A DNA stretch of 48,081 nucleotides from an uncultured Lachnospiraceae bacterium (GCA_948954545.1 CARCRR010000028.1:1-48081); one strand, 5' to 3'; positions 8,625-44,960 are shown, numbered from the stretch's first letter. A program made the numbers and translations. The notes: generated by a model not told the origin, from the letters alone.

Positions 8625-8865
8625 GGACGCCAGAGTATGGCATTGCAGTACTGTTTCGCTCTACAGAAAGTAAGAAGCTCTAAGACTTCTGAATTTAGAT
8701 GCATCCAACCGGACGGACCGGGGTGCAATTCGCCCGTGCTGCGGGCTAAACACACCCCTTTTTTTGCCATTCGAGAATGGCAAAAAATCCTAATGAATCG
8801 ACAGAAGTCTAAAAGCTTCTAACTTTCCTCCGAAGTCACAGTACTGCAATGCCATACTCTGGCTG
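8625..8865 (-). repeat. Family-1 foldback element, copy 2 (reverse orientation).
   Basis: Termini GGACGCCAGAGT...ACTCTGGCTG, the same central hairpins, and a copy-specific self-complementary arm segment TATGGCATTGCAGTACTG / CAGTACTGCAATGCCATA. Confidence 0.85.
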
Positions 8866-9187: not shown

Positions 9188-9270
9188 TGCCGCAGGCCGG
9201 ACTTGAACCGGCACGAGGTCGCCCCCGCTAGATTTTGAGTCTAGTGCGTCTGCCATTCCGCCACTGCGGC
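9188..9270 (-). tRNA. tRNA-Leu (anticodon CAA), 83 nt, long variable arm; CCA not encoded.
   Basis: Manual cloverleaf: acceptor GCCGCAG/CTGCGGC, anticodon stem CTAGA/TCTAG, loop CTCAAAA, T-arm GCCGG-TTCAAGT-CCGGC. Confidence 0.85.
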
Positions 9271-12856: not shown

Positions 12857-13108
12857 CCAGCTGGAGTTTGGAAGCCCTTTCTCTATGCAGTGACTTCGGA
12901 GAAAAGTTAGAAAGTCTTATGCCTCTGTCGATCTCCTAGGATTTTTGCCATCTTCTGATGGCAAAAAAGGGGTGTGTTTAGCCCGCTGCACGGGCGAATT
13001 GCACCCCGGTCCGTCCGGTTGGATATATTTTCATTCAGAGGCATTAGACTTTCTTACTTTTCGGAGAGCGGAACAGCATAGAGAAAGGGCTTCCAAACTC
13101 CAGCGTCC
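12857..13108 (+). repeat. Family-1 foldback element, copy 3.
   Basis: Termini CCAGCTGGAGT...ACTCCAGCGTCC. Its terminator-like hairpin has a compensatory stem (GCCATC-ttct-GATGGC). Confidence 0.85.
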
Positions 13109-13116
13109 CCTACACC

Positions 13117-13300
13117 ATCCCCCCAGCTTTTCTATCCTAATATCCACACACCATCCCCCAGCTTTCCCATCTCAATATCCACACATCATCCCCCAACTTT
13201 CCCATCTCAATATCCACACACCATCCCCCCAACTTTCCCATCTCAATATTCACACCATCCCCCCAACTTTCCCATCTCAGTATCCACACCATTCCCATTC
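13117..13300. repeat. Tandem repeat, ~33-34 bp unit x ~5 (consensus AACTTTCCCATCTCAATATCCACACACCATCCCCCC).
   Basis: Read directly. It lies immediately right of family-1 copy 3 and left of the carboxypeptidase stop codon. Confidence 0.8.
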
Positions 13301-22786: not shown

Positions 22787-22972
22787 TGTGGTTCTCCTTA
22801 CCCATAGTGTTACAAACCTGCTTCGATTAATCGAACATATATACGATTGTAGCAGATTTTCTATTATCTGACAAGACCTTAATTCGAATCGATCGAATAG
22901 TAATCTGATTATTTATAGTGAGCCAGAAAGTTATTTATAGTGAGCCGAATGATTGTTTATGGCGATCCGGAC

Positions 22973-23112
22973 GATTGCATCTGCTGGTGATTCCCTGCTG
23001 GGGCCGTTTGCACTAAGGCTTCCTCGCAGCGGACACATAAGGCACGAAAGTACCGTGCCTAAGTGCCGGCGGGAAGCAATACCCCTGCAGGGATTCACCA
23101 GCAGCTACAATC
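22973..23112 (+). repeat. Family-3 unit A, 140 bp: 16-bp outer arm GATTGCATCTGCTGGT, GATTC, 98-bp conserved core, GATTC, 16-bp complementary arm.
   Basis: The core CCTGCTGGGGCCGTTTGCACTAAGGCTTCCTCGCAGCGGACACATAAGGCACGAAAGTACCGTGCCTAAGTGCCGGCGGGAAGCAATACCCCTGCAGG is shared with 23733, 36849 and 37238. Confidence 0.85.
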
Positions 23113-23146
23113 TGTCTATCTCAACGGAATGTTTGATAGAATCGCT

Positions 23147-23407
23147 TTACCAAGTTGTTTTCTGATCTTTATGTGTATAATGTTTCATCTGTACTAATAA
23201 ATTGGACAATTTTTCTTGATAATATTCTTTCTGTTTTTCATCCAGTTTATTTGCATCAAGATATTCCTGAAAAACCTTTTGAAATTCCTTTAAATTTTCT
23301 TGTGCTGCGTCTTTATAATTATTTGACATATTCATTTGTATCTTTTGTAAAATTGTCTCTAACTGAGCATTTTTCTTCGCTTTATTTTTCAGATCTTTAA
23401 AAAACAC
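23147..23407 (-). CDS. Hypothetical small protein (86 aa, K/E/Q-rich).
   Basis: ORF only; no recognisable motif. Confidence 0.35.
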   Translation of the reverse strand: MFFKDLKNKAKKNAQLETILQKIQMNMSNNYKDAAQENLKEFQKVFQEYLDANKLDEKQKEYYQEKLSNLLVQMKHYTHKDQKTTW

Positions 23408-23614
23408 GGATTTAATTTAACCTCCTAAATCTTTAAATTAAAAATATATCGCCTATTTTATATAAAAATGCGGAGAGAAATCCATATTTTTCCTCTCCGA
23501 TCTATTTACCATCTCTATTATAAAAGCAGCCTTAAAATTTTTCAACTATATTTTATTATAAATATAATATTCCATGTAAAACATAGGAAAATTTTCACTA
23601 AAGCATAAAAATCA

Positions 23615-23718
23615 AAGGAAATTCGCAATCCGCTTCACTACTCGCTCATAACCTCATAGCCACTATCGCAACTTTTCAATGAAAGTCTAAAGTCTGCACT
23701 TCCTTGATGAGGTTAAAA
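23615..23718 (+). repeat. Family-2 repeat, degenerate copy (left module + variant middle hairpin + right end).
   Basis: ATTCGCAATCCGCTTCACTACTCGCTCATAACCTCAT ... ACTTCCTTGATGAGGTTAAAA. Confidence 0.7.
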
Positions 23719-23732
23719 TAAGGTACAAAACA

Positions 23733-23872
23733 GCTCGCCCTAAGGGATCTTTCTTTGCAGGGGTATTGCTTCCCGCCGGCACTTAGGCACGGTCTTTTCG
23801 TGCCTTATGTGTCCGCTGCGAGGAAGCCTTAGTGCAAACGGTCCCAGCAAAGAAAGATCCCTTAGGGCGAGC
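23733..23872 (-). repeat. Family-3 unit B, 140 bp. Outer arms GCTCGCCCTAAGGGAT / ATCCCTTAGGGCGAGC; the pentamers are CTTTC / GAAAG (inverted here, not direct).
   Basis: Same 98-bp core in reverse orientation. Confidence 0.85.
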
Positions 23873-23979
23873 GTCAGGACTACCCAAAACAATTCTAAAT
23901 CAAACAATCCCAAACCACTCCAAACAATCGAAACTCTACAATAAATGAAAAACTTAGTATAAAATATATTATACCTATT

Positions 23980-25407
23980 CTATTTATTCTCCGTCTGAGG
24001 CAGACTAATCCGCACAAACCGCCTTAAAAACTCCCGTCCATTAAAAGGAAACAACGGATACAAATAACTCTTTCCCGAAAGCGTGCGATTCTGACAAATA
24101 CAAAATACCGCAAACAAAATTCCAAATCCATATCCCCAAACATCCAATATCTGTGTAAGCAGCAAGGTAATCAACCGCATAAACTTAAGTGCAAACCCCA
24201 GTTCAAAACTAGGCTGCGAATAATTTGCCAACACCACAAAAGCCATATAAAGCATAGACTCCGAATTAAACCACCCCGACTGTACCGCATAATCCCCTAA
24301 TACTAAACCCGCAATTACACTTAAAGGCGTACTAAGCATATTAGGTGTATTCACAGCCGCAAGCCGCAACCCATCAATCGCAAATTCCAAAATAATCAAC
24401 TGCCAAATCAAAGGAACCTGTATCTCTTCAGCCGGAAAGATAAACGCAAGCCATTCTGGAACCCACTCTGGATTTTTCATAAGCAACAGCCAAGTAGGTG
24501 TCAAAATCATTGTCAAGATCGTAATAATAAATCGTGACACTCTAAGATAAGTCCCTGTAACAGGAGGAAAATAATAATCATCTGCTTCCTCTAAAATATC
24601 AAATACCGAACAAGGCAGAATCATAGCGGAAGGAGAATTATCCACTAAAACCGCAATCCCTCCTTCCAATATCGATGCCGCTGCCGTATCTGGACGCTCG
24701 GTATATTTATACTTCGGAAACGGATTCCACCATCCCCTTCTATAGAGACATTCCGCCAAACTCTCCTGATTCATAGTCAATGCATCAATATCAATTTTTT
24801 TAATTCTCTGAATCAACTCCTTTAAAAATTCGGGATCGACACGATCTCTCATATAGCAGACAGCTATATCCGTCTTAGAAGAACGCCCCACTGTATAGAT
24901 CTCATTTGTCAATTCCGTGCTTCGAATTCGGCGGCGAATTAATGCCGTATTGGATACCATCGTTTCTACAAATCCATCCCTAGAACCACGCATTACCCTG
25001 TCTTTTTCCGGTTCCTCTACTCCCCTTGACGGATAACTTCTGCAGTCAATCAGATAAGCTTCCTGATACCCCTCTACAAACATTGCAACCACACCGGAAA
25101 GTACATTTTTTATAATCGTATCCTCTTTTGTCTCTAACTCCACTTCTAAATAAGACAAATATTTTTTAGAAAATCCTGCTGCATCGGACGGCATATCCTC
25201 TTTTTTAATACTAACAAAAGATGCCATTAACTTCTGCATATCGTCATCTTTTACAAAACCATTTACAAAAAAATAAACTGCATTTCGCTCACCAATCAAA
25301 AGTTCTTTATATAAAATATCAAAACTATCCTCTGTCCGCAAAAGCTGCTGGAACCGTTTTAAGGTATTTTGAAAATTCAGTTGCTCTGTCTTATCCATTC
25401 CTCCCAC
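23980..25407 (-). CDS. GerA-family spore germination protein (SpoVAF/GerKA-like).
   Basis: ~475 aa. Soluble N-terminal domain plus a C-terminal multi-TM region typical of GerA-family A subunits. Confidence 0.65.
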   Translation of the reverse strand: MGGMDKTEQLNFQNTLKRFQQLLRTEDSFDILYKELLIGERNAVYFFVNGFVKDDDMQKLMASFVSIKKEDMPSDAAGFSKKYLSYLEVELETKEDTIIKNVLSGVVAMFVEGYQEAYLIDCRSYPSRGVEEPEKDRVMRGSRDGFVETMVSNTALIRRRIRSTELTNEIYTVGRSSKTDIAVCYMRDRVDPEFLKELIQRIKKIDIDALTMNQESLAECLYRRGWWNPFPKYKYTERPDTAAASILEGGIAVLVDNSPSAMILPCSVFDILEEADDYYFPPVTGTYLRVSRFIITILTMILTPTWLLLMKNPEWVPEWLAFIFPAEEIQVPLIWQLIILEFAIDGLRLAAVNTPNMLSTPLSVIAGLVLGDYAVQSGWFNSESMLYMAFVVLANYSQPSFELGFALKFMRLITLLLTQILDVWGYGFGILFAVFCICQNRTLSGKSYLYPLFPFNGREFLRRFVRISLPQTENK

Positions 25408-25554: not shown

Positions 25555-25681
25555 CAAGTCAAATCGGATATTCGCAATCCGCTTTGCTACTTGCTCCTAA
25601 CCTCATCAAGGAAGTCCACCGCTTTCGCCTTGGCGGCTTAGAAGCGGGGGACTTCCTTGATGAGGTTAAAATATTGAAAAT
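25555..25681 (+). repeat. Family-2 repeat, full copy (left module CAAGTCAAATCGGATATTCGCAATCCGCTTTGCTACTTGCTC + 19-bp-stem hairpin).
   Basis: Direct repeat of 27790-27911. Confidence 0.85.
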
Positions 25682-27789: not shown

Positions 27790-27911
27790 CAAGTCAAATC
27801 GGATATTCGCAATCCGCTTCGCTACTTGCTCATAACCTCATCAAGGAAGTCCCAACCCACCGCTTTCGCCTTGACGGCTTAGAAGCGGGGGACTCCCTTG
27901 ATGAGGTTAAA
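27790..27911 (+). repeat. Family-2 repeat, full copy.
   Basis: CAAGTCAAATCGGATATTCGCAATCCGCTTCGCTACTTGCTCATAACCTCATCAAGGAAGTCCCAACCCACCGCTTTCGCCTTGACGGCTTAGAAGCGGGGGACTCCCTTGATGAGGTTAAA. Confidence 0.85.
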
Positions 27912-29309: not shown

Positions 29310-29562
29310 CAGCCAGAGTTTGGAAGCGATTCTTTTTTGCTGTGACTTCGGAGAAAAGTTAGAACGTCTTATGCCTCTGTCGATCCACTAGGATTTTTTG
29401 CCATTTCCAAATGGCAAAAAAAGGCACGTGTTTAGCCTCCTGCAGAGGCGAATTGCGTGCCGATCCGTCCGGTCAGATGCACCTAAACTCAGAGGCATTA
29501 GCCGTTCTTACTTTTCGGAGAGCGGAACAGCAAAAAAGAATCGCTTCCAAACTCTAGCGTCC
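29310..29562 (+). repeat. Family-1 foldback element, copy 4.
   Basis: Termini CAGCCAGAGT...ACTCTAGCGTCC. Both central hairpins carry compensatory substitutions (GCCATTT-cc-AAATGGC; GGCACG..GCCTC-ctgca-GAGGC..CGTGCC). Confidence 0.85.
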
Positions 29563-29596
29563 CCCTCCCCCATTTCCCTACAAAACTCCCATTTCC

Positions 29597-31111
29597 CTAC
29601 AAAACCCCCGTATCACTATCCACCTCAAACCAAAATTCCACCCCATTTTCCAAATTTCGAACCCCATATTCTTTATGATGAGCTTCCATAATCGCCTTTA
29701 CAATCGACAGCCCAATCCCGCTCCCTCCATACTCTCTTGTCCGTGCCTTATCCACCTTATAAAACTTAATCCAAACCTTCCCCAACTCCTCCTCTGGAAT
29801 CGGATTCCCTGTATTAAAAACAGACACCCTTACCGTATGCTCATTTTTTGTCAAAGAAACAACGATCTGCTTCTCTCCGCCTGCATAGTGAATCGCATTA
29901 CTAATATAATTCGTAACCACTTCCTCTAACTGATACTCATCTCCCCATACAAAAACCGGCTCCCGCTGCTCGAATAAAACCGTAATCTTGTCCTGCCTGC
30001 ATAAAATTTCAACCGACTGAATCACACCCAAAATCAATGCCGTCAAATCAAACCGCTCCATCGTAATCTGTTCCTGTCCAAATTCTAACTGATTTAAAGT
30101 CAGCAGTTTCTTTACCATTTTATTCATTTTATCTGCTTCATCTATAATTACTTCACAGTAAAACTCCCTGCTTTCTGCATCCTCATTAATCCCTTCTGCA
30201 AGCCCCTCCGCATATCCCTGAATCAATGCAATCGGCGTTTTTAATTCATGAGATACATTCGATAAAAATTCCTTCCTTATCTCCTCCATCTGAATCTTCT
30301 GCTCAATATCCTTTTGCAGTTCATTATTTGCCGACTTTAATTCAGAAATCGTATGCTCTAACTTTTTGGAAAGTTCATTCATACTCTGCCCTAACACACC
30401 GATTTCATCTTTATCGTGCCGCTCATACTTTGCCTCAAAATCTAAATTAGACATTTTCCCCGATAATTCTGCCAATTCCAACAAAGGTCTAGTCAAACGC
30501 CTAGTAATCGTAATCGAAATCATAATAGCTAAAATACTGACAATTCCTCCCACATAGGCAACAAAACGATTAGAAATCTCTACACTTTCCTTTATACTTT
30601 CCACTGGAATACGAAGCAGCATATATTCTCTGGTATTAGGCTCTACCCCGAATAATTCCAAAAAATTAGTCGAATAGCGACTATCTTTATTTCGAAAAAT
30701 ACTATAATCCTCTTCCCTTTTTAAAGTCACCGCACTATTCTCAATTCCAAATAAATAAGGCATTACCAAATCCTGCAGGGTCTGCACATTGTGCACATTA
30801 TAATAAACTGGTTTTAACATTCCTGTATTGGCATCCAAAATAATAAATGTAATATTGGATTTTTGGCACAACCCCTCTAACTCCAATGCTACCTCATCCG
30901 CCTTTTTATTACTCTGTACCAATTCACACATACTCACATAAGCATTTTCCAATTTTGTCTGTTTACTAATTAAATAATAATCTTCTAAAAATCGATTATT
31001 AATCAATAAAAGCAAAAAAACTGTACCAAAAGTCGCAAATAACATTAATGCTATTATTTTGGTTCGAATAGAATATTGTATTTTCCCTACTAAACCTGCT
31101 ATTTTACTCAT
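29597..31111 (-). CDS. Sensor histidine kinase (TM-HAMP-HisKA-HATPase).
   Basis: H-box SHELKTP; ATPase N/G boxes (NAIHY.., GGSGIGLSIV). Confidence 0.9.
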   Translation of the reverse strand: MSKIAGLVGKIQYSIRTKIIALMLFATFGTVFLLLLINNRFLEDYYLISKQTKLENAYVSMCELVQSNKKADEVALELEGLCQKSNITFIILDANTGMLKPVYYNVHNVQTLQDLVMPYLFGIENSAVTLKREEDYSIFRNKDSRYSTNFLELFGVEPNTREYMLLRIPVESIKESVEISNRFVAYVGGIVSILAIMISITITRRLTRPLLELAELSGKMSNLDFEAKYERHDKDEIGVLGQSMNELSKKLEHTISELKSANNELQKDIEQKIQMEEIRKEFLSNVSHELKTPIALIQGYAEGLAEGINEDAESREFYCEVIIDEADKMNKMVKKLLTLNQLEFGQEQITMERFDLTALILGVIQSVEILCRQDKITVLFEQREPVFVWGDEYQLEEVVTNYISNAIHYAGGEKQIVVSLTKNEHTVRVSVFNTGNPIPEEELGKVWIKFYKVDKARTREYGGSGIGLSIVKAIMEAHHKEYGVRNLENGVEFWFEVDSDTGVL

Positions 31112-33636: not shown

Positions 33637-33710
33637 TCGAGGTGACGTGATTCGAACACGCGACTTCTACGTCCCGAACGTAGCGCTCTACCAAACTGAG
33701 CCACACCTCG
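33637..33710 (-). tRNA. tRNA-Pro (anticodon CGG), 74 nt, CCA not encoded.
   Basis: Manual fold of CGAGGTG-TG-GCTC-AGTTTGGTA-GAGC-G-CTACG-TTCGGGA-CGTAG-AAGTC-GCGTG-TTCGAAT-CACGT-CACCTCG-A. Confidence 0.85.
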
Positions 33711-33736
33711 AACATAACACGGTTACGTTTAACCGA

Positions 33737-34099
33737 TGGAGCTGAGGGGAATCGAACCCCTGTCCGAAGACTCCTCCATCAAAGCATCTCCCACCACAGT
33801 CCCTGTTTTATGCATAGCCTTTTTCTATACGGTTCCCTCTATCGGACACCCATGGACAGGTTTCCGGCTTTAGTAGCTTCATTTTTCTTTTATACCCTCA
33901 AAGCTTTGGATACAAAGTTCCTTACCTCCTTGATGCCGGATTCTTAAGCAGTAAGCTACCTAAGAGCGACAGCTGCTATTAAGCAGCGAACGCGTAATCT
34001 TCGTTTGCGTTTATATTTAATTTTCGGTTTACTAATGCGGTTCCGACCCGCAGGTGGCTTCTCCAACTTCATAATCCCCGTCGAAACCAGTACAACCCC
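33737..34099 (-). ncRNA. ssrA: tmRNA (ssrA), ~363 nt.
   Basis: 5' GGGGTTGTACTGGTTTCGACGGGGAT…, with a G3·U acceptor pair. 3' …GGGGTTCGATTCCCCTCAGCTCCA (tRNA-Ala-like T-arm and acceptor). The internal tag reading frame is GCA AAC GAA GAT TAC GCG TTC GCT GCT TAA, predicted tag ANEDYAFAA. Confidence 0.85.
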
Positions 34100-36483: not shown

Positions 36484-36720
36484 TCAACTATTCTCCTGAG
36501 ATGCTTTTTCCTCTTGTGCTTTCTTTTTTCGATTCCGTGTCCCAAGAATTCCGCCGATACGTCCGGTTTCCCGTGCAGAAAGCGTTCCCCATCCCCCTTT
36601 CAGCACTTTATCCAACACCCCAATTTCCTCTGCAATTTCTAATTTCATCTCATCCTCTGGTGTTAAATTCTCTAAATCAATTTCTTTCTTTTTCTTAGTC
36701 GGCATTACTCTCTCCTCCAA
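36484..36720 (-). CDS. Possible small acid-soluble spore protein (alpha/beta-type-like), divergent.
   Basis: 78 aa; KLEIAEEIGV…G…TGRIGG resembles the SASP alpha/beta helix-turn-helix core. Confidence 0.4.
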   Translation of the reverse strand: MEERVMPTKKKKEIDLENLTPEDEMKLEIAEEIGVLDKVLKGGWGTLSARETGRIGGILGTRNRKKKAQEEKASQENS

Positions 36721-36848: not shown

Positions 36849-36988
36849 GCAGGTAGCATAGAGAGATTCTTTGCTGGGGCCGTTTGCACTAAGGCTTCCT
36901 CGCAGCGGACACATAAGGCACGAAAAGACCGTGCCTAAGTGCCGGCGGGAAGCAATACCCCTGCAAAGATTCTCTCTATGCTACCCGC
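36849..36988 (+). repeat. Family-3 unit C, 140 bp. Outer arms GCAGGTAGCATAGAGA / TCTCTATGCTACCCGC; GATTC on both sides.
   Basis: Same 98-bp core as unit A. Confidence 0.85.
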
Positions 36989-36989
36989 T

Positions 36990-37237
36990 GTTTCGTTCCC
37001 CCTAGAAATAATGCCTCATAAACGTTTTTATTCCGCCTGTTGGCTTGTTCCTCCTGGAAACAATGCCTCACAAACATTTTTACTCTGCCTGCCGATCCAT
37101 TCCTCCTAAAAACAACACTCTGCAAAAATTCTCTATTCTGCCTATTGACGTATTTCTCCTGGATTAAACTATCTAAAATCACACAAAAACGGTTTTAGTC
37201 AACCAAAATACTGCGACTGTTCCGGTTGGAATACACA
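36990..37237. repeat. Degenerate tandem repeat, ~52-bp unit x ~3.5 (…CCTCCTGGAAACAATGCCTCACAAACATTTTTACTCTGCCTGCCGATCCATT…), filling the gap between family-3 units C and D.
   Basis: Read directly. Confidence 0.7.
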
Positions 37238-37377
37238 GCTGACACCACTGGATGAATCTCTGCAGGGGTATTGCTTCCCGCCGGCACTTAGGCACGGTCT
37301 TTTCGTGCCTTATGTGTCCGCTGCGAGGAAGCCTTAGTGCAAACGGCCCCAGCAGAGAATCATCCAGTGGTGTCAGC
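37238..37377 (-). repeat. Family-3 unit D, 140 bp. Outer arms GCTGACACCACTGGAT / ATCCAGTGGTGTCAGC; GAATC on both sides (= GATTC in the core's orientation).
   Basis: Same core in reverse orientation; it lies 75 nt past the addA stop codon. Confidence 0.85.
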
Positions 37378-37452
37378 GTCCCCCCAACAGAAAATCACCC
37401 AATGATGTCAGCGTCCCCCCAACATATATTCGTTTAAATTCAAATCATTCGC

Positions 37453-40400
37453 TTAAATTCGAATCTCTTTCCCCAATCCAAAAGAATACAATATCATCTC
37501 CCCAACTTCCTCCCCCGTCATCTGCTCCAATGCCATTTTATAAAGTTCAAACTGCCTCTCATACCGCATCACCAGCACTTCCTCCTGCCCTTCATAAACT
37601 GCATCTGTCTTATAATCCAACAGTACCAACTTTCCCTCCTCTTCAAAATAAACATCAATCACCCCCTGCAGTAAAATTAACTCCTGACTCTCTGTCTCCC
37701 GATATAACTTCCAAGCAGGAATCCCCACTACAAACTGCGTCTCCCGATAAATCTGCCCTCTCTTTTCCGCTTCCCGCATCCGCTTTGCCGTCTGAGAAGT
37801 TAAAAACGCCACAATTCTCTGATTCCAAATCAACTTAGCATTTTCTTTTGAAAGTTTCTTTTCCTCCACTAACTGCCGCTTTAACTGCCCGATTCGTTTT
37901 GAAATCTCGTTCTCTTCCATTCCGTCAAATTCTGCTAAATTCATATTTTCTAAAAAAATATGATAGGCGGTTCCTCGTGTTGCTCCTCCCACACCTTCTA
38001 ATTTTCCCTGCATAAATTTCGGCAGAATCTCTTCTTTTTGTTCGATTAATAATGCCGTATCTTCTTCTGCTTCCATTTCTCTTTGATTCAAACGTTTCTG
38101 CTCCGATACGGAAGTTTTTGCATAAAGTGACATTTCTTTCTGATAAGGATACAGATAAGAAAACCTCTTTTCTATCTCTTCTCTTAACTGAGGATCAAAA
38201 CATTGCGAAAAATCCAGTTTCTTCTGATAATCGGATAAATCCATATTTTCTTTCTGCCGCAGAATCTCTCCCTCCGCAACTCCCTTTGGTGTATAAAATG
38301 TAACTTCACAACTTTCTTTTGTGATCGCTGGTACAATCCAATCTAGATAGGACTCTGCTTTTGCAAGGGAAGCATAGGACAGTGCCGCTCCTCCATTTGT
38401 TTCTCTCCGCCACTTTTCATATCGTTCTGTCATCTTATCTGTTACACCGGTTAAAATCAGCTTTTCTTTTGCCCTTGTCAGTGCTACATATAAAATCCGC
38501 AGTTCTTCTCCAAGGTTTTCTAAACGAATACTTTTTTGAATAATTCGCTTGATTAAAACAGGAGCTTTCGTTCTGCGTTCATAATTTACAAAATCTAATC
38601 CCACTCCTAAGTCGGGATGAATCACTGCTTTCTGCATAGCATCCATTTGATTAATCTTTTTTCCCATTCCGGCTACAATAACAATCGGAAATTCCAGTCC
38701 TTTGCTCTTATGGATACTCATAATCCGAACGGTGTTGTCCTGTTCATTTACAATCGATGCTTCTCCGAAGTCCACCTCATATTGGTTGAGTTTTTCAATA
38801 TAGCGGATAAAGTGAAAGACACCCCGATAACTGGTTGCTTCAAAGGCAATAGCTTTTTCTAACAGCATATCTAAATTCATTCTTCGTTTTGTTCCTGCCG
38901 GCATGGAAGCGGCATAATCTCCATAGCCTGTTACTTTTAAGACTAATCGTATTAATTCATGAATAGGGGTACATGCTGCTTGATCCCGGAAATATTCTAA
39001 CTGTTCTAAAAATGCTTTTACTTTTTTATCTAGTTCTTCTTCTCCAACCGGAGAAAGCAGTGCTTCATAGAGATCTCCCTCTAGATGAGCCGAGCGGATC
39101 TTTGCCAGTTCTAAGCTGCTGAAATGTCCAATCGGCGAGTGCAGAACCCCTGCTAATGGAATGTCCTGTCTGGGATTGTCAATAATTCTTAATAGGTTTA
39201 ATACCGTCTGTACTTCCAAGGCGGTAAAATATCCGGTCTGGGACTGGGTATGGGCAGGAATTCCTTCTTCCATGCAGATCGTTACAATCGTCTCTCCCCA
39301 TCCTGCTACTGTACGCAAAAGGACAACAATATCCCTGTACTGTGCAGTCCGATAGGTACCCGACTTTTTGTCTAGAACTTTCAGACCGGTATCTGGATGG
39401 GTCAGTCTTCGAATCTGACCGGCTATTACCTTTGCTTCCATTACCAGGGCTGTCATTTCTGCCGTTACCAGATCGGTGGTATCCTCTTCTTGGGATTTAT
39501 TGATCAGCAGTAACTCGGTCTTTCGCTCCTGTGCTTCTGAACCGCCTTCTGGAAATGCTGCTCCTGGATAGAGTGCTGCTGCATTGTCATAGGTTACGCC
39601 TCCTAATTCTTTCCGCATAATCTGATAAAAGATATCATTTACGCTCTGTAAGACCTCTGGACGGCTGCGGAAGTTTTTATGGAGATCAATTTTTTGATAA
39701 TTGCTTTCTTCTGTGGTATATGTCTGATATTTTTCCACAAAAAGCTCGGGTCTTGCTAAACGAAACTTATAGATGCTTTGTTTTACATCTCCTACCATAA
39801 AGACATTGGGAATTTCTTCCTGATAACGGGAAACGCTAAATAAAATTGCCTCCTGCACTAAATTGCTGTCCTGATATTCATCAATCATAATCTCTGTAAA
39901 CTGATCCCGATATTCTTTTGCAATCAGTGACGGCACTCTTCCCTCTTTTGTCTGTTCAGTCAGGATATTAAGTGCCAAATGTTCTACATCCGAAAAATCC
40001 ATTAAATTGCGTTCCCTTTTTTTTGCCTGATATCTGGTATGAAAGTCTAATGTCAGCCTTACCATTACCGCCATAGTCTTGCTTACATTTGCCATATTTT
40101 CCAGCATCTTATCGATTGGCTGAAAATAGAACTGCTTTCCGATTCCCCGAATTTCCTCTTTGATTCGATCTCGAATCTCTTTGACTCTTGCCTTTTTTTC
40201 AGCATCGATCGAGGAATCTTTTTTTGAGGATAAGCGGATAAAGTTTACTTCTTTTAAAGCCTTTCCAAAACTTTGATAGGATTTGCACTGTACTAATTTT
40301 TCTAAATAATAGAAATCTGACTCAATAGCTGGAAGATACTGATAGGGACCTCTCTCCTGGCTGCAGATCTGTTTTGCCAGATCCAACTGACTGCAGCAGT

Positions 40401-44724: not shown

Positions 44725-44960
44725 ACGCCAGAGTACTTGAAAGGGAACTGTTCCGCTCTCCGAAAAGCAGAAGCTCTAAGACTTCTGAATCTAGGCATAT
44801 CCAACCGGACGGATCGGGGTGCAATTCGCCCGTACAGCGGGCTAAACACACCCCTTTTTTTGCCATTCGAGAATGGCAAAAAATCCTAGTGGATTGACAG
44901 AAGTCTAAGAGCTTCTAACTTTCCTCCGAAGTCACAGTTCCCTTTCAAGTACTCTGGCTG
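44725..44960 (-). repeat. Family-1 foldback element, copy 5 (reverse orientation).
   Basis: Termini ACGCCAGAGT…ACTCTGGCTG; self-complementary variable segment ACTTGAAAGGGAACTG / CAGTTCCCTTTCAAGT. Confidence 0.85.

Follow-up and report, generated by a model that had tools for sequence, protein, structure and literature searches.

The window considered here, i.e., the whole 48,081-nt stretch of DNA from an uncultured Lachnospiraceae bacterium (GCA_948954545.1, CARCRR010000028.1:1-48081), harbors four units, A to D, of a repeat family referred to as Family 3. All four are intergenic and are found among housekeeping genes (ruvAB, gerA, an ABC ATPase gene, sufBD, addAB and polA, identified with Pfam on the open reading frames (ORFs) of the window). 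A preliminary description, made from the sequence alone, had located four near-identical cores in 140-bp units at 22973-23112 (+), 23733-23872 (-), 36849-36988 (+) and 37238-37377 (-). These positions and orientations are confirmed; a 45-mer of the core (at most one mismatch) has four matches in the window, as compared to none in 100 shuffles, and the units are near-identical across ~90 nt once they are put in one orientation. The outer arms are also, as described, complementary within each 140-bp unit, with 0-2 mismatches. Each unit folds into one long rod, with z values of -8.6 to -12.7 relative to shuffles on either strand. The units do not end at 140 bp, as had been proposed; alignment of the copies revealed a leader of ~20 nt and a trailer, GTCC(GG), conserved beyond these ends. 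With leader and trailer included, and given on the strand that folds (discussed below), the units and their covariance-model scores are:

22965..23134, - strand: unit A, 186.6 bits
23711..23880, + strand: unit B, 182.5 bits
36841..37010, - strand: unit C, 191.7 bits
37216..37385, + strand: unit D, 194.3 bits

Unit A lies upstream of the ruvA promoter and follows, at 35 nt, the stop codon of a conserved 86-aa ORF. Its divergent partner, unit B, has its trailer side 108 nt from the gerA stop codon. Unit D is the divergent partner of unit C, and its trailer side is located 76 nt from the addA stop codon at 37453, i.e., D ends beyond this stop codon and is not inside addA, in whose 3' region it had been placed. 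The parts of a unit are exemplified by those of D, all on the + strand:

37216..37237: leader (ACTGTTCCGGTTGGAATACACA), unpaired, with 54% mean identity across copies and an invariant last ACA (from alignments)
37238..37268: 5' strand of the 30-bp outer stem, i.e., a 16-nt arm, the pentamer GAATC and then TCTGCAGGGG
37269..37346: middle, where a 4 x 13-nt internal loop leads to the invariant 15-bp helix and this to the variable apical hairpin of 8 bp
37347..37377: 3' strand of the outer stem, assigned from the covariation count
37378..37424: trailer (GTCCCCCCAACA) and a tandem second copy; position weight matrix score 21.0, period 35, 2.2 copies

The 15-bp helix in the middle of D has three bulges on its 3' side, and the apical hairpin is GGCACGG/UCGUGCC. 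The 5' strand of the outer stem (37238..37268) is hypervariable and covaries with 37347-37377. Behind the D trailer, the tandem copy consists of pentamer-like sequence, the 3' arm and the trailer (GAAAATC ACCCAATGATGTCAGC GTCCCCCCAACA).

The structure statistics given below were obtained from an alignment of 38 units, which comprises 53 pairs and 2014 cells. Standard pairing is found in 99.6% of these cells, and 29 of the 53 pairs have changed on both sides. The covariation score is 0.448, as compared to 0.14 for shuffled alignments (none of 500 reach the observed value) and 0.08-0.11 when the partners are slid along each other. Along the folded strand the element is composed of the leader, a 30-bp paired stem of free sequence, an internal loop, an invariant, bulged 15-bp helix, an 8-bp apical hairpin and the trailer. 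The outer stem (helix 1) is nearly free in sequence, with 23 of its 30 pairs changed on both sides. In helix 2 the three bulges are all found on one strand and 14 of the 15 pairs never vary; in a diverged copy (L023, 3655) this helix covaries as well, from GCTTCC/GGAAGC to ATTTCC/GGAAAT. Five of the eight pairs of the apical helix 3 covary (GGCACG/CGTGCC, GGTGCT/AGCACC, GATGCT/AGCATC and GGCGTT/AACGCC). The fold is a simple rod with one apical loop, UCUUU, and has no pseudoknots or junctions. Mean identity between copies is 99% in the middle, 69% in the pentamer and the adjoining 3 nt, 54% in the leader and 49% in the arms. The leader is A-rich and unpaired (consensus ..GTTCCGGTTGGAATACACA) and its final ACA is invariant in the 38 units, while GTCC(GG) is conserved on the other side of the stem; leader and trailer display no consistent complementarity by eye.

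The alignment of 38 units does not bear out the 16-5-98-5-16 partition given in the preliminary description. The pentamer GATTC had been taken for a special direct repeat, but it pairs with GATTC except for the central T:T, and across the 38 copies it varies and covaries as part of the stem (GAATC/GATTC, TAGTC/GACTA, CTTTC/GAAAG, ATTAC/GTAAT, GAGTC/GACTC and others). The sequence GAWTC is nearly self-complementary; the pentamer is identical on both sides in 14 of the 38 copies and otherwise complementary. The covarying variable pairs extend three positions inward of the pentamer, and the boundary of a 98-bp core is not real since variable paired sequence runs 3-4 bp inside the pentamer. The arms, which had been described as totally different between units, have a weak consensus (GYNKGYAKSATAGRGR), a mean identity of 49% and visible subfamilies. 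A coding reading of the unit was considered and rejected; ORFs do begin at an ATG in the middle and continue across the 3' arm, but they lack a ribosome-binding site, and the variation of the arm shows no codon pattern.

The mismatches of the stems are nearly all A.C in the orientation used in the preliminary description, which corresponds to G.U on the complementary strand. In the variable columns, 30 G.U cells are found in 11 columns, as compared to two A.C cells, and 37 of the 38 units fold better on the complementary strand, with a mean gain of 5 kcal/mol. This wobble asymmetry goes with unit orientation and not with the direction of the neighboring genes, and a mutation bias of replication or transcription therefore does not explain it. 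The data show that one specific single strand, the complement of that used earlier, must fold and that wobble is tolerated on that strand only. The strong covariation supports the earlier proposal of a structured nucleic acid whose closing helix covaries, while the strand then used and the likeness to a retron or ribozyme did not hold.

A census of the family was made by a scan for an exact 24-mer in 185,579 species, each represented by one genome, followed by BLAST and the covariance model. The scan returned 39 loci, 37 of which are found in one metagenome-assembled genome (MAG) of a mouse-gut Lachnospiraceae bacterium (MGBC128194) and two in a sister MAG. The former is of the same species as the window, and its loci L036, L002 and L037 correspond to units A, B and C. 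The 37 loci hold ~45 copies, with 2-3 more in the sister MAG; BLAST and the covariance model yielded 40 distinct complete units and several more that are truncated at contig ends. A third relative (RuvA 89% identical) has the end of a unit at a contig edge and a decayed half-unit, and no units were found in 10-20 kb each from more distant relatives (loci with 83-86% identical RuvA and outgroups with 86-88% identical GH130). Searches elsewhere were negative: Rfam has no family for the units at the gathering threshold or at E<=10, a 30-mer scan of viral contigs and BLAST searches of plasmids and phages gave no match to the units, and a 20-mer scan of JGI metagenomes gave seven chance matches and no unit. 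With moderate confidence, Family 3 is described as a lineage-restricted, multi-copy, non-coding hairpin element of ~165-170 bp that is spread between housekeeping genes. It adds to the known structured families one that covaries strongly and is absent from Rfam, carried by an uncultured mouse-gut Lachnospiraceae bacterium. The repeats also matter for MAG assemblies, in which short-read contigs often break at these sites, many of them ending inside a unit.

Closely related copies at unrelated loci (L038a and L025) have the same arms, which implies that the arms are part of what is copied. The distribution shows that copies, arms included, have dispersed to many intergenic sites. How the arms then change is seen in an orthologous unit of two species (loci L015 and L016), where coding DNA differs by ~10% and non-coding flanks by 15-18%. 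Here, the stem differs by ~21% per site, with five fully compensated pairs (two of them transversions) and one wobble, and the middle differs at 1 of 88 positions. Between two strains that are 98.7% identical, unit A differs by G17A and C124T, i.e., by the two sides of one pair, and in three units the center of the pentamer toggles between A.A and A-T. Compensated change at an approximately neutral rate is too fast for two independent selected mutations. It fits hairpin-templated template switching, a documented route to paired changes of this sort in a single event (PMC8794818, PMC7202029). Because the stems evolve almost neutrally while they remain paired, even between such similar strains, they offer a natural test case for template switching in hairpins. 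As a separate observation, most unit pentamers are GANTC, the site type of CcrM/HinfI-like enzymes, with N toggling between strains in three of the four window units, and the window encodes an N6/N4 DNA methyltransferase (PF01555; 26742-27740, - strand).

In the sister species, one member of a pair is missing at L016; the leader, the 5' arm and the middle are gone, and the 3' arm and trailer (GTTTTTAGATGCCGAC GTTCGG) are left. The 6-nt sequence GTTTTT is found at both junctions, and the event may be read either as a slippage deletion or as an asymmetric excision footprint. The outgroups lack the whole region of this missing unit. Orthologous sites in relatives (RuvA 83-89%, GH130 86-88% identical) are too diverged for boundaries to be defined; the units are absent there, and ordinary terminators are found.

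Fourteen loci hold two units, 96-654 bp apart, and in all 14 pairs the units point away from each other with their leaders facing. The spacers of the pairs have nothing in common except these leaders. Between A and B the spacer is an ancestral gene, that of the 86-aa ORF, which is present in relatives without units, so that the pairs are independent neighbors rather than one composite element. This ORF (23147-23407, - strand) has its own promoter and conserved counterparts of 82-97 aa in three related species, and Pfam gives no match. Another small gene, with a weak match to SASP (spore protein), is located between unit C and the ABC ATPase gene (36484-36705, - strand; 2155-2376 in L062) and is absent from the listing of ORFs of at least 80 aa. 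Rare apical variants are often common to partner units, suggestive of local gene conversion. An all-against-all comparison of the ORFs near the copies revealed no recurrent ORF and gave only read-through artefacts and ABC ATPases.

Eight of ~10 solo units are antisense to both of their neighbors, and 17-118 nt separate their trailer side from the upstream stop codon. Seen in the sense direction of the gene, a position just behind the stop codon (17-128 nt) is occupied by 8 of the ~10 solo units and by one unit per pair in a co-directional context. In this gene-sense direction, 29 of 40 units have five or more T among the 9 nt that follow the stem, as compared to 0 of 40 on the other strand; in D, it is the leader that, on the opposite strand, forms the T-rich tail behind the hairpin. 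This T tract is interrupted (TGTnTATT-like), the stem is far longer than usual, and a simple terminator scanner gives no call. Relatives without units have canonical terminators at the same places. The C-rich trailer was also considered as a Rho-loading site, and this was rejected because its composition (C 27%, G 12.5%) equals the same-strand background of the window (C 26%, G 14%).

Tandem repeats are found beside several of the hairpins. Of 11 such repeats in the window, five abut hairpin elements, four on the trailer side and one on the leader side, and some of those on the trailer side duplicate the 3' arm and trailer. The repeat between C and D that had been reported earlier is present, with a period of 52 nt. 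The repeats beside Family 3 units are:

22906..22960: 22-nt tandem repeat, 2.5 copies, trailer side of unit A
36996..37115: 52-nt tandem repeat, leader side of unit C, in the C-D spacer
37347-37424: 35-nt tandem repeat, 2.2 copies, trailer side of unit D

The other hairpins that are flanked by tandem repeats belong to the kind of the TwoAYGGAY RNA motif (Rfam RF01731), which was described by Weinberg et al. in 2010 with function unknown (PMC2864571) and has been proposed as a CsrA-binding small RNA (sRNA; PMC4333381). Five long hairpins of this type, ~240 nt each, are found in the 48-kb window:

2707..2950, + strand: TwoAYGGAY RNA copy in a 32-bp outer stem (RF01731, 63.7 bits), with ..AAAAAACA before the first G and GTCCTCCCCC after the last C
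8629..8863, - strand: TwoAYGGAY RNA copy of the same build (RF01731, 68.2 bits)
12860..13104, + strand: TwoAYGGAY-type element of the same build, with a 35-nt tandem repeat of five copies (13112-13289) behind the trailer
29312..29558, + strand: TwoAYGGAY-type element of the same build, with a 19-nt tandem repeat of 2.3 copies (29567-29609) behind the trailer
44727..44958, - strand: TwoAYGGAY-type element of the same build

A scan of the whole window with Rfam at the gathering threshold found one TwoAYGGAY copy and a local scan a second (63.7 bits), which indicates that speed filters hide copies. All five window copies have an A-rich leader that ends with (A/C)CA, a stem that begins with G and ends with C around a variable middle, and a GTCC trailer, and the TwoAYGGAY elements of the window carry 26-32 bp of extra outer stem. 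The same frame, i.e., ACA followed by G at one end and C followed by GTCC at the other, with an outer stem of free sequence and the same polarity, is found in all 38 Family 3 units and in five of the six TwoAYGGAY-type elements. The Rfam RNA strand of TwoAYGGAY is the leader-to-trailer strand, i.e., the polarity is the same as that given by the wobble test in Family 3. Furthermore, the Family 3 covariance model matches a TwoAYGGAY-type element in L001 (1201-1478) at 42.6 bits. In the opposite direction there is no match; Family 3 does not reach the RF01731 gathering threshold (43 bits), a scan of 22800-24000 at E<=10 gave no hit, and the window-wide scan gave none at the units.

The likeness thus comprises the A-rich leader ending with ACA, the long, poorly conserved outer stem closed by G and C, the GTCC trailer, the polarity, the intergenic placement and the tandem repeats behind trailers in both. 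In addition, a segment inside TwoAYGGAY, GTTCCGTCCGGTTGGATACAC, is similar to the Family 3 leader (GTTCCGGTTGGAATACAC), and by eye 16 of 23 bases match between the second TwoAYGGAY hairpin and the beginning of the Family 3 middle. The two differ in that Family 3 is one rod with another middle sequence and is ~100 nt shorter, whereas TwoAYGGAY has two hairpins with AYGGAY loops in a junction. Because the build is shared in the same genome, Family 3 is filed as a second core of the TwoAYGGAY class, outside RF01731. Both the conserved flanks and this kinship in build were missed in the preliminary description.

A motif of unknown function since 2010 is thereby connected to Family 3 by shared flanks and build. 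In this genome TwoAYGGAY acts like a dispersed repeat at gene ends, and the idea of a free-standing sRNA is worth re-examining. A more speculative proposal, to which we give a small probability, is that the frame of leader, free stem and trailer is a vehicle for interchangeable structured cores (TwoAYGGAY, Family 3) that keeps itself complementary by hairpin-templated copying. If so, the 15-year-old orphan TwoAYGGAY "RNA" would be one cargo of a mobile hairpin system, and the variable 24-30-bp duplexes might themselves be used, e.g., after processing into copy-specific small duplex RNAs. Two observations near TwoAYGGAY-type elements are added here. In a related species, the spacer between the genes of an M32 peptidase and queH holds a decayed Family 3 half-unit behind GATCCGGAC (L055, 11060-11165); the window has a TwoAYGGAY-type element and a third species a plain terminator in this spacer, i.e., the same intergenic site is occupied by different elements. 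In the window, the start of an 812-aa protein with a Major Vault Protein (MVP) shoulder domain (PF11978, 80 bits) and an MVP repeat (PF17795), odd for a Firmicute (177-2615, - strand), is located 92 nt from a TwoAYGGAY-type element, which is probably a coincidence.

The integron attC site is another element in which structure is conserved, sequence is free and one specific strand folds and is recognized. Family 3 shares with attC the priority of structure over sequence and the single folded strand. It differs in that it lacks RYYYAAC/GTTRRRY boxes and has a hairpin base of G and C between ACA and GTCC, in that the middle is invariant, in that copies are found solo or in divergent pairs rather than in cassette arrays, and in that no integrase is seen near the copies.

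The explanation that we put forward, with about an even chance of being correct, places Family 3 among the dispersed hairpin elements of the TwoAYGGAY/REP-like kind, as a new family confined to one lineage, in which the single-stranded fold is under selection and the stems are probably kept paired by template switching. The invariant, asymmetric middle would be a platform for a trans-acting protein, and the two variable helices would just hold the shape. The rate and pattern of change suggest that the stems drift at a nearly neutral rate and that template switching copies a change in one arm to the other arm, while selection on the single-stranded fold would remove what stays unpaired. The folded strand may act either as RNA or in the form of single-stranded DNA. 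The copies are not accompanied by a gene of their own, so that whatever moves them acts in trans. In the commonest placement, where the other strand has the sense of the upstream gene, the position suggests that the hairpin and its T-rich tail stand in for an intrinsic terminator.

Several observations weigh against this explanation. Gene conversion between copies, and not selection, could account for the near-identical middle; partners often share rare apical variants. The strand test is weakened by the chance that many of the G.U cells are inherited rather than independent; counted by columns the asymmetry is 11 vs 2. No conserved promoter was found before the leader when sigma-70, sigma-54 and sporulation sigma factors were checked, which leaves an RNA of the folded strand without a visible source in those solo units that are antisense to both neighbors. 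Moreover, the terminator-like reading and the wobble asymmetry favor opposite strands. No insertion or excision of Family 3 was seen between strains, all of which have the units at both window loci, so that mobility is inferred from dispersal only. Finally, no trans-acting protein was identified, there being no recurrent ORF near the copies.

Among the alternatives, the one that survives best, and which we regard as unlikely, is a DNA element of the REPIN/PATE kind, one strand of which is excised as a single-stranded DNA hairpin and reinserted by an HUH-type (RAYT/TnpA-like) or other transposase acting in trans. The enzyme would recognize the invariant bulged helix and cut near the junctions of ACA with G and of C with GTCC; covariation and tolerance of G.T would then reflect a DNA hairpin and not an RNA. 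REP/REPIN elements are mobilized by RAYTs (Bertels and Rainey 2011, PMC3116915), and Family 3 resembles them in its many gene-less, long intergenic hairpins with compensatory changes, found as singlets, doublets and clusters, as well as in asymmetric deletion footprints that leave one end, such as the L016 remnant (PMC3116915). Solo copies of the 3' arm and trailer beside D, L013 and L026 are consistent with this mechanism, as are the lack of a visible promoter and the invariant, bulged, non-covarying helix that a structure-specific DNA-binding enzyme would need. However, the GTTTTT junctions at L016 allow ordinary slippage deletion, and the architecture is reversed: REPINs are conserved at both ends around a free middle, whereas Family 3 has free ends and its conserved part in the middle. 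The doublets of Family 3 are two separate hairpins that point away from each other, and neighbors are on opposite strands in 14 of 14 pairs, although lagging-strand coupling should give the same strand locally. In addition, no polymorphic insertion was seen between strains, and the host is a Firmicute; neither a RAYT gene nor another transposase-like ORF was found in the loci examined (~370 kb around copies).

It is more doubtful that Family 3 is an independently expressed sRNA family with its own promoters, in which the middle sequesters or guides an RNA-binding protein and the long stem is a possible RNase III substrate. The strong, strand-specific covariation argues for an RNA, as do polarity and build, which match those of an Rfam RNA family of the same genome, and the CsrA-binding proposal for TwoAYGGAY includes a role as a protein sponge (PMC4333381). 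On the other hand, no conserved -35/-10 sequences are found upstream of the leader, there are no GGA-in-loop motifs in Family 3, forty near-identical genes for one sRNA would be unusual, and neither the placement at gene ends nor the always divergent partners are predicted.

The preliminary description had raised two further possibilities. The first, a 98-bp miniature inverted-repeat transposable element (MITE) that targets GATTC in the loop of a palindrome and duplicates 5 bp, is not supported, as the pentamer is a varying stem, no direct repeat flanks the unit and no empty site was seen. A looser version, to which we give very little credence, is that a MITE of ~98-108 bp inserted into the loop or center of older, diverged palindromes with their own leader and trailer, the GATTC duplication being optional. 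Palindrome-loop-targeting insertion sequences are known, e.g., IS1397, which inserts into palindromic units (cited in PMC3116915). In its favor, the arms are far more diverged than the cores (49% vs 99% identity), two different cores (Family 3 and TwoAYGGAY) reside in one frame of leader, stem and trailer, and one core-less palindrome exists. A search for empty sites, i.e., arm, GATTC and arm without the core, found none; the only core-less palindrome, in L005 (- strand, ~710), is composed of a leader, a 16-nt arm, 1 nt, the complementary arm and a GTCCCC trailer. It lacks the pentamer and is thus unfit as an empty site, and a central deletion of a long palindrome explains it. Moreover, no more than 14 of the 38 copies carry the same pentamer on both sides and the others carry complementary ones, as expected for a stem rather than a duplication, and the covarying pairs inside it leave no sharp boundary between young and old sequence. 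The arms shared by L038a and L025 at different loci show that arms travel with the core, and the orthologous units show that arms evolve fast while the core is held. In L038a and L025 no direct repeat is found outside the leader and trailer, and when copies are compared one by one, the leader GTTCCGG does not agree with the trailer GTCCGG.

Known hairpin MITEs and related repeats (Correia/NEMIS, ERIC/IRU, RUP and BOX) are non-coding intergenic repeats of 100-200 bp that are co-transcribed with the adjacent genes, form RNA hairpins and sometimes act as terminators. Their terminal inverted repeats are conserved from copy to copy, and they are flanked by a target duplication. Family 3 resembles them in size and in being non-coding and intergenic, and differs in that its terminal stems share 49% identity between copies and that there is no target-site duplication. 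No autonomous partner element with matching ends was found in ~370 kb of loci.

The second possibility, a retron msr/msd-like or self-cleaving ribozyme-like element, is hardly credible: a long hairpin with flanking complementary arms is all that it has in common with Family 3, which is a simple rod with 40 copies per genome, and no reverse transcriptase, TnpB/IscB-like or transposase gene is found next to the copies in ~370 kb of loci (ORF comparison and Pfam), where the neighbors are ruvA, gerA, the ABC ATPase gene, addA and similar genes, and the ribozyme and retron-like models of Rfam give no match, even at E<=10.

Some further features of the window are given for completeness. A third family of hairpin repeats (TAACCTCATCAAGGAAGTCC...GGGACTTCCTTGATGAGGTTA) is found at 25598-25668 and 27833-27909, with a half-copy near 23690-23712 and a counterpart in L062 at ~1520-1640. 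It is polymorphic between strains; one strain (L062) has an insertion of ~160 bp of this family between D and C that is absent from the window strain. The window also harbors a tmRNA gene (33734-34099, - strand) and two tRNA genes (33637-33710 and 9188-9270, both on the - strand), all of which are ordinary.

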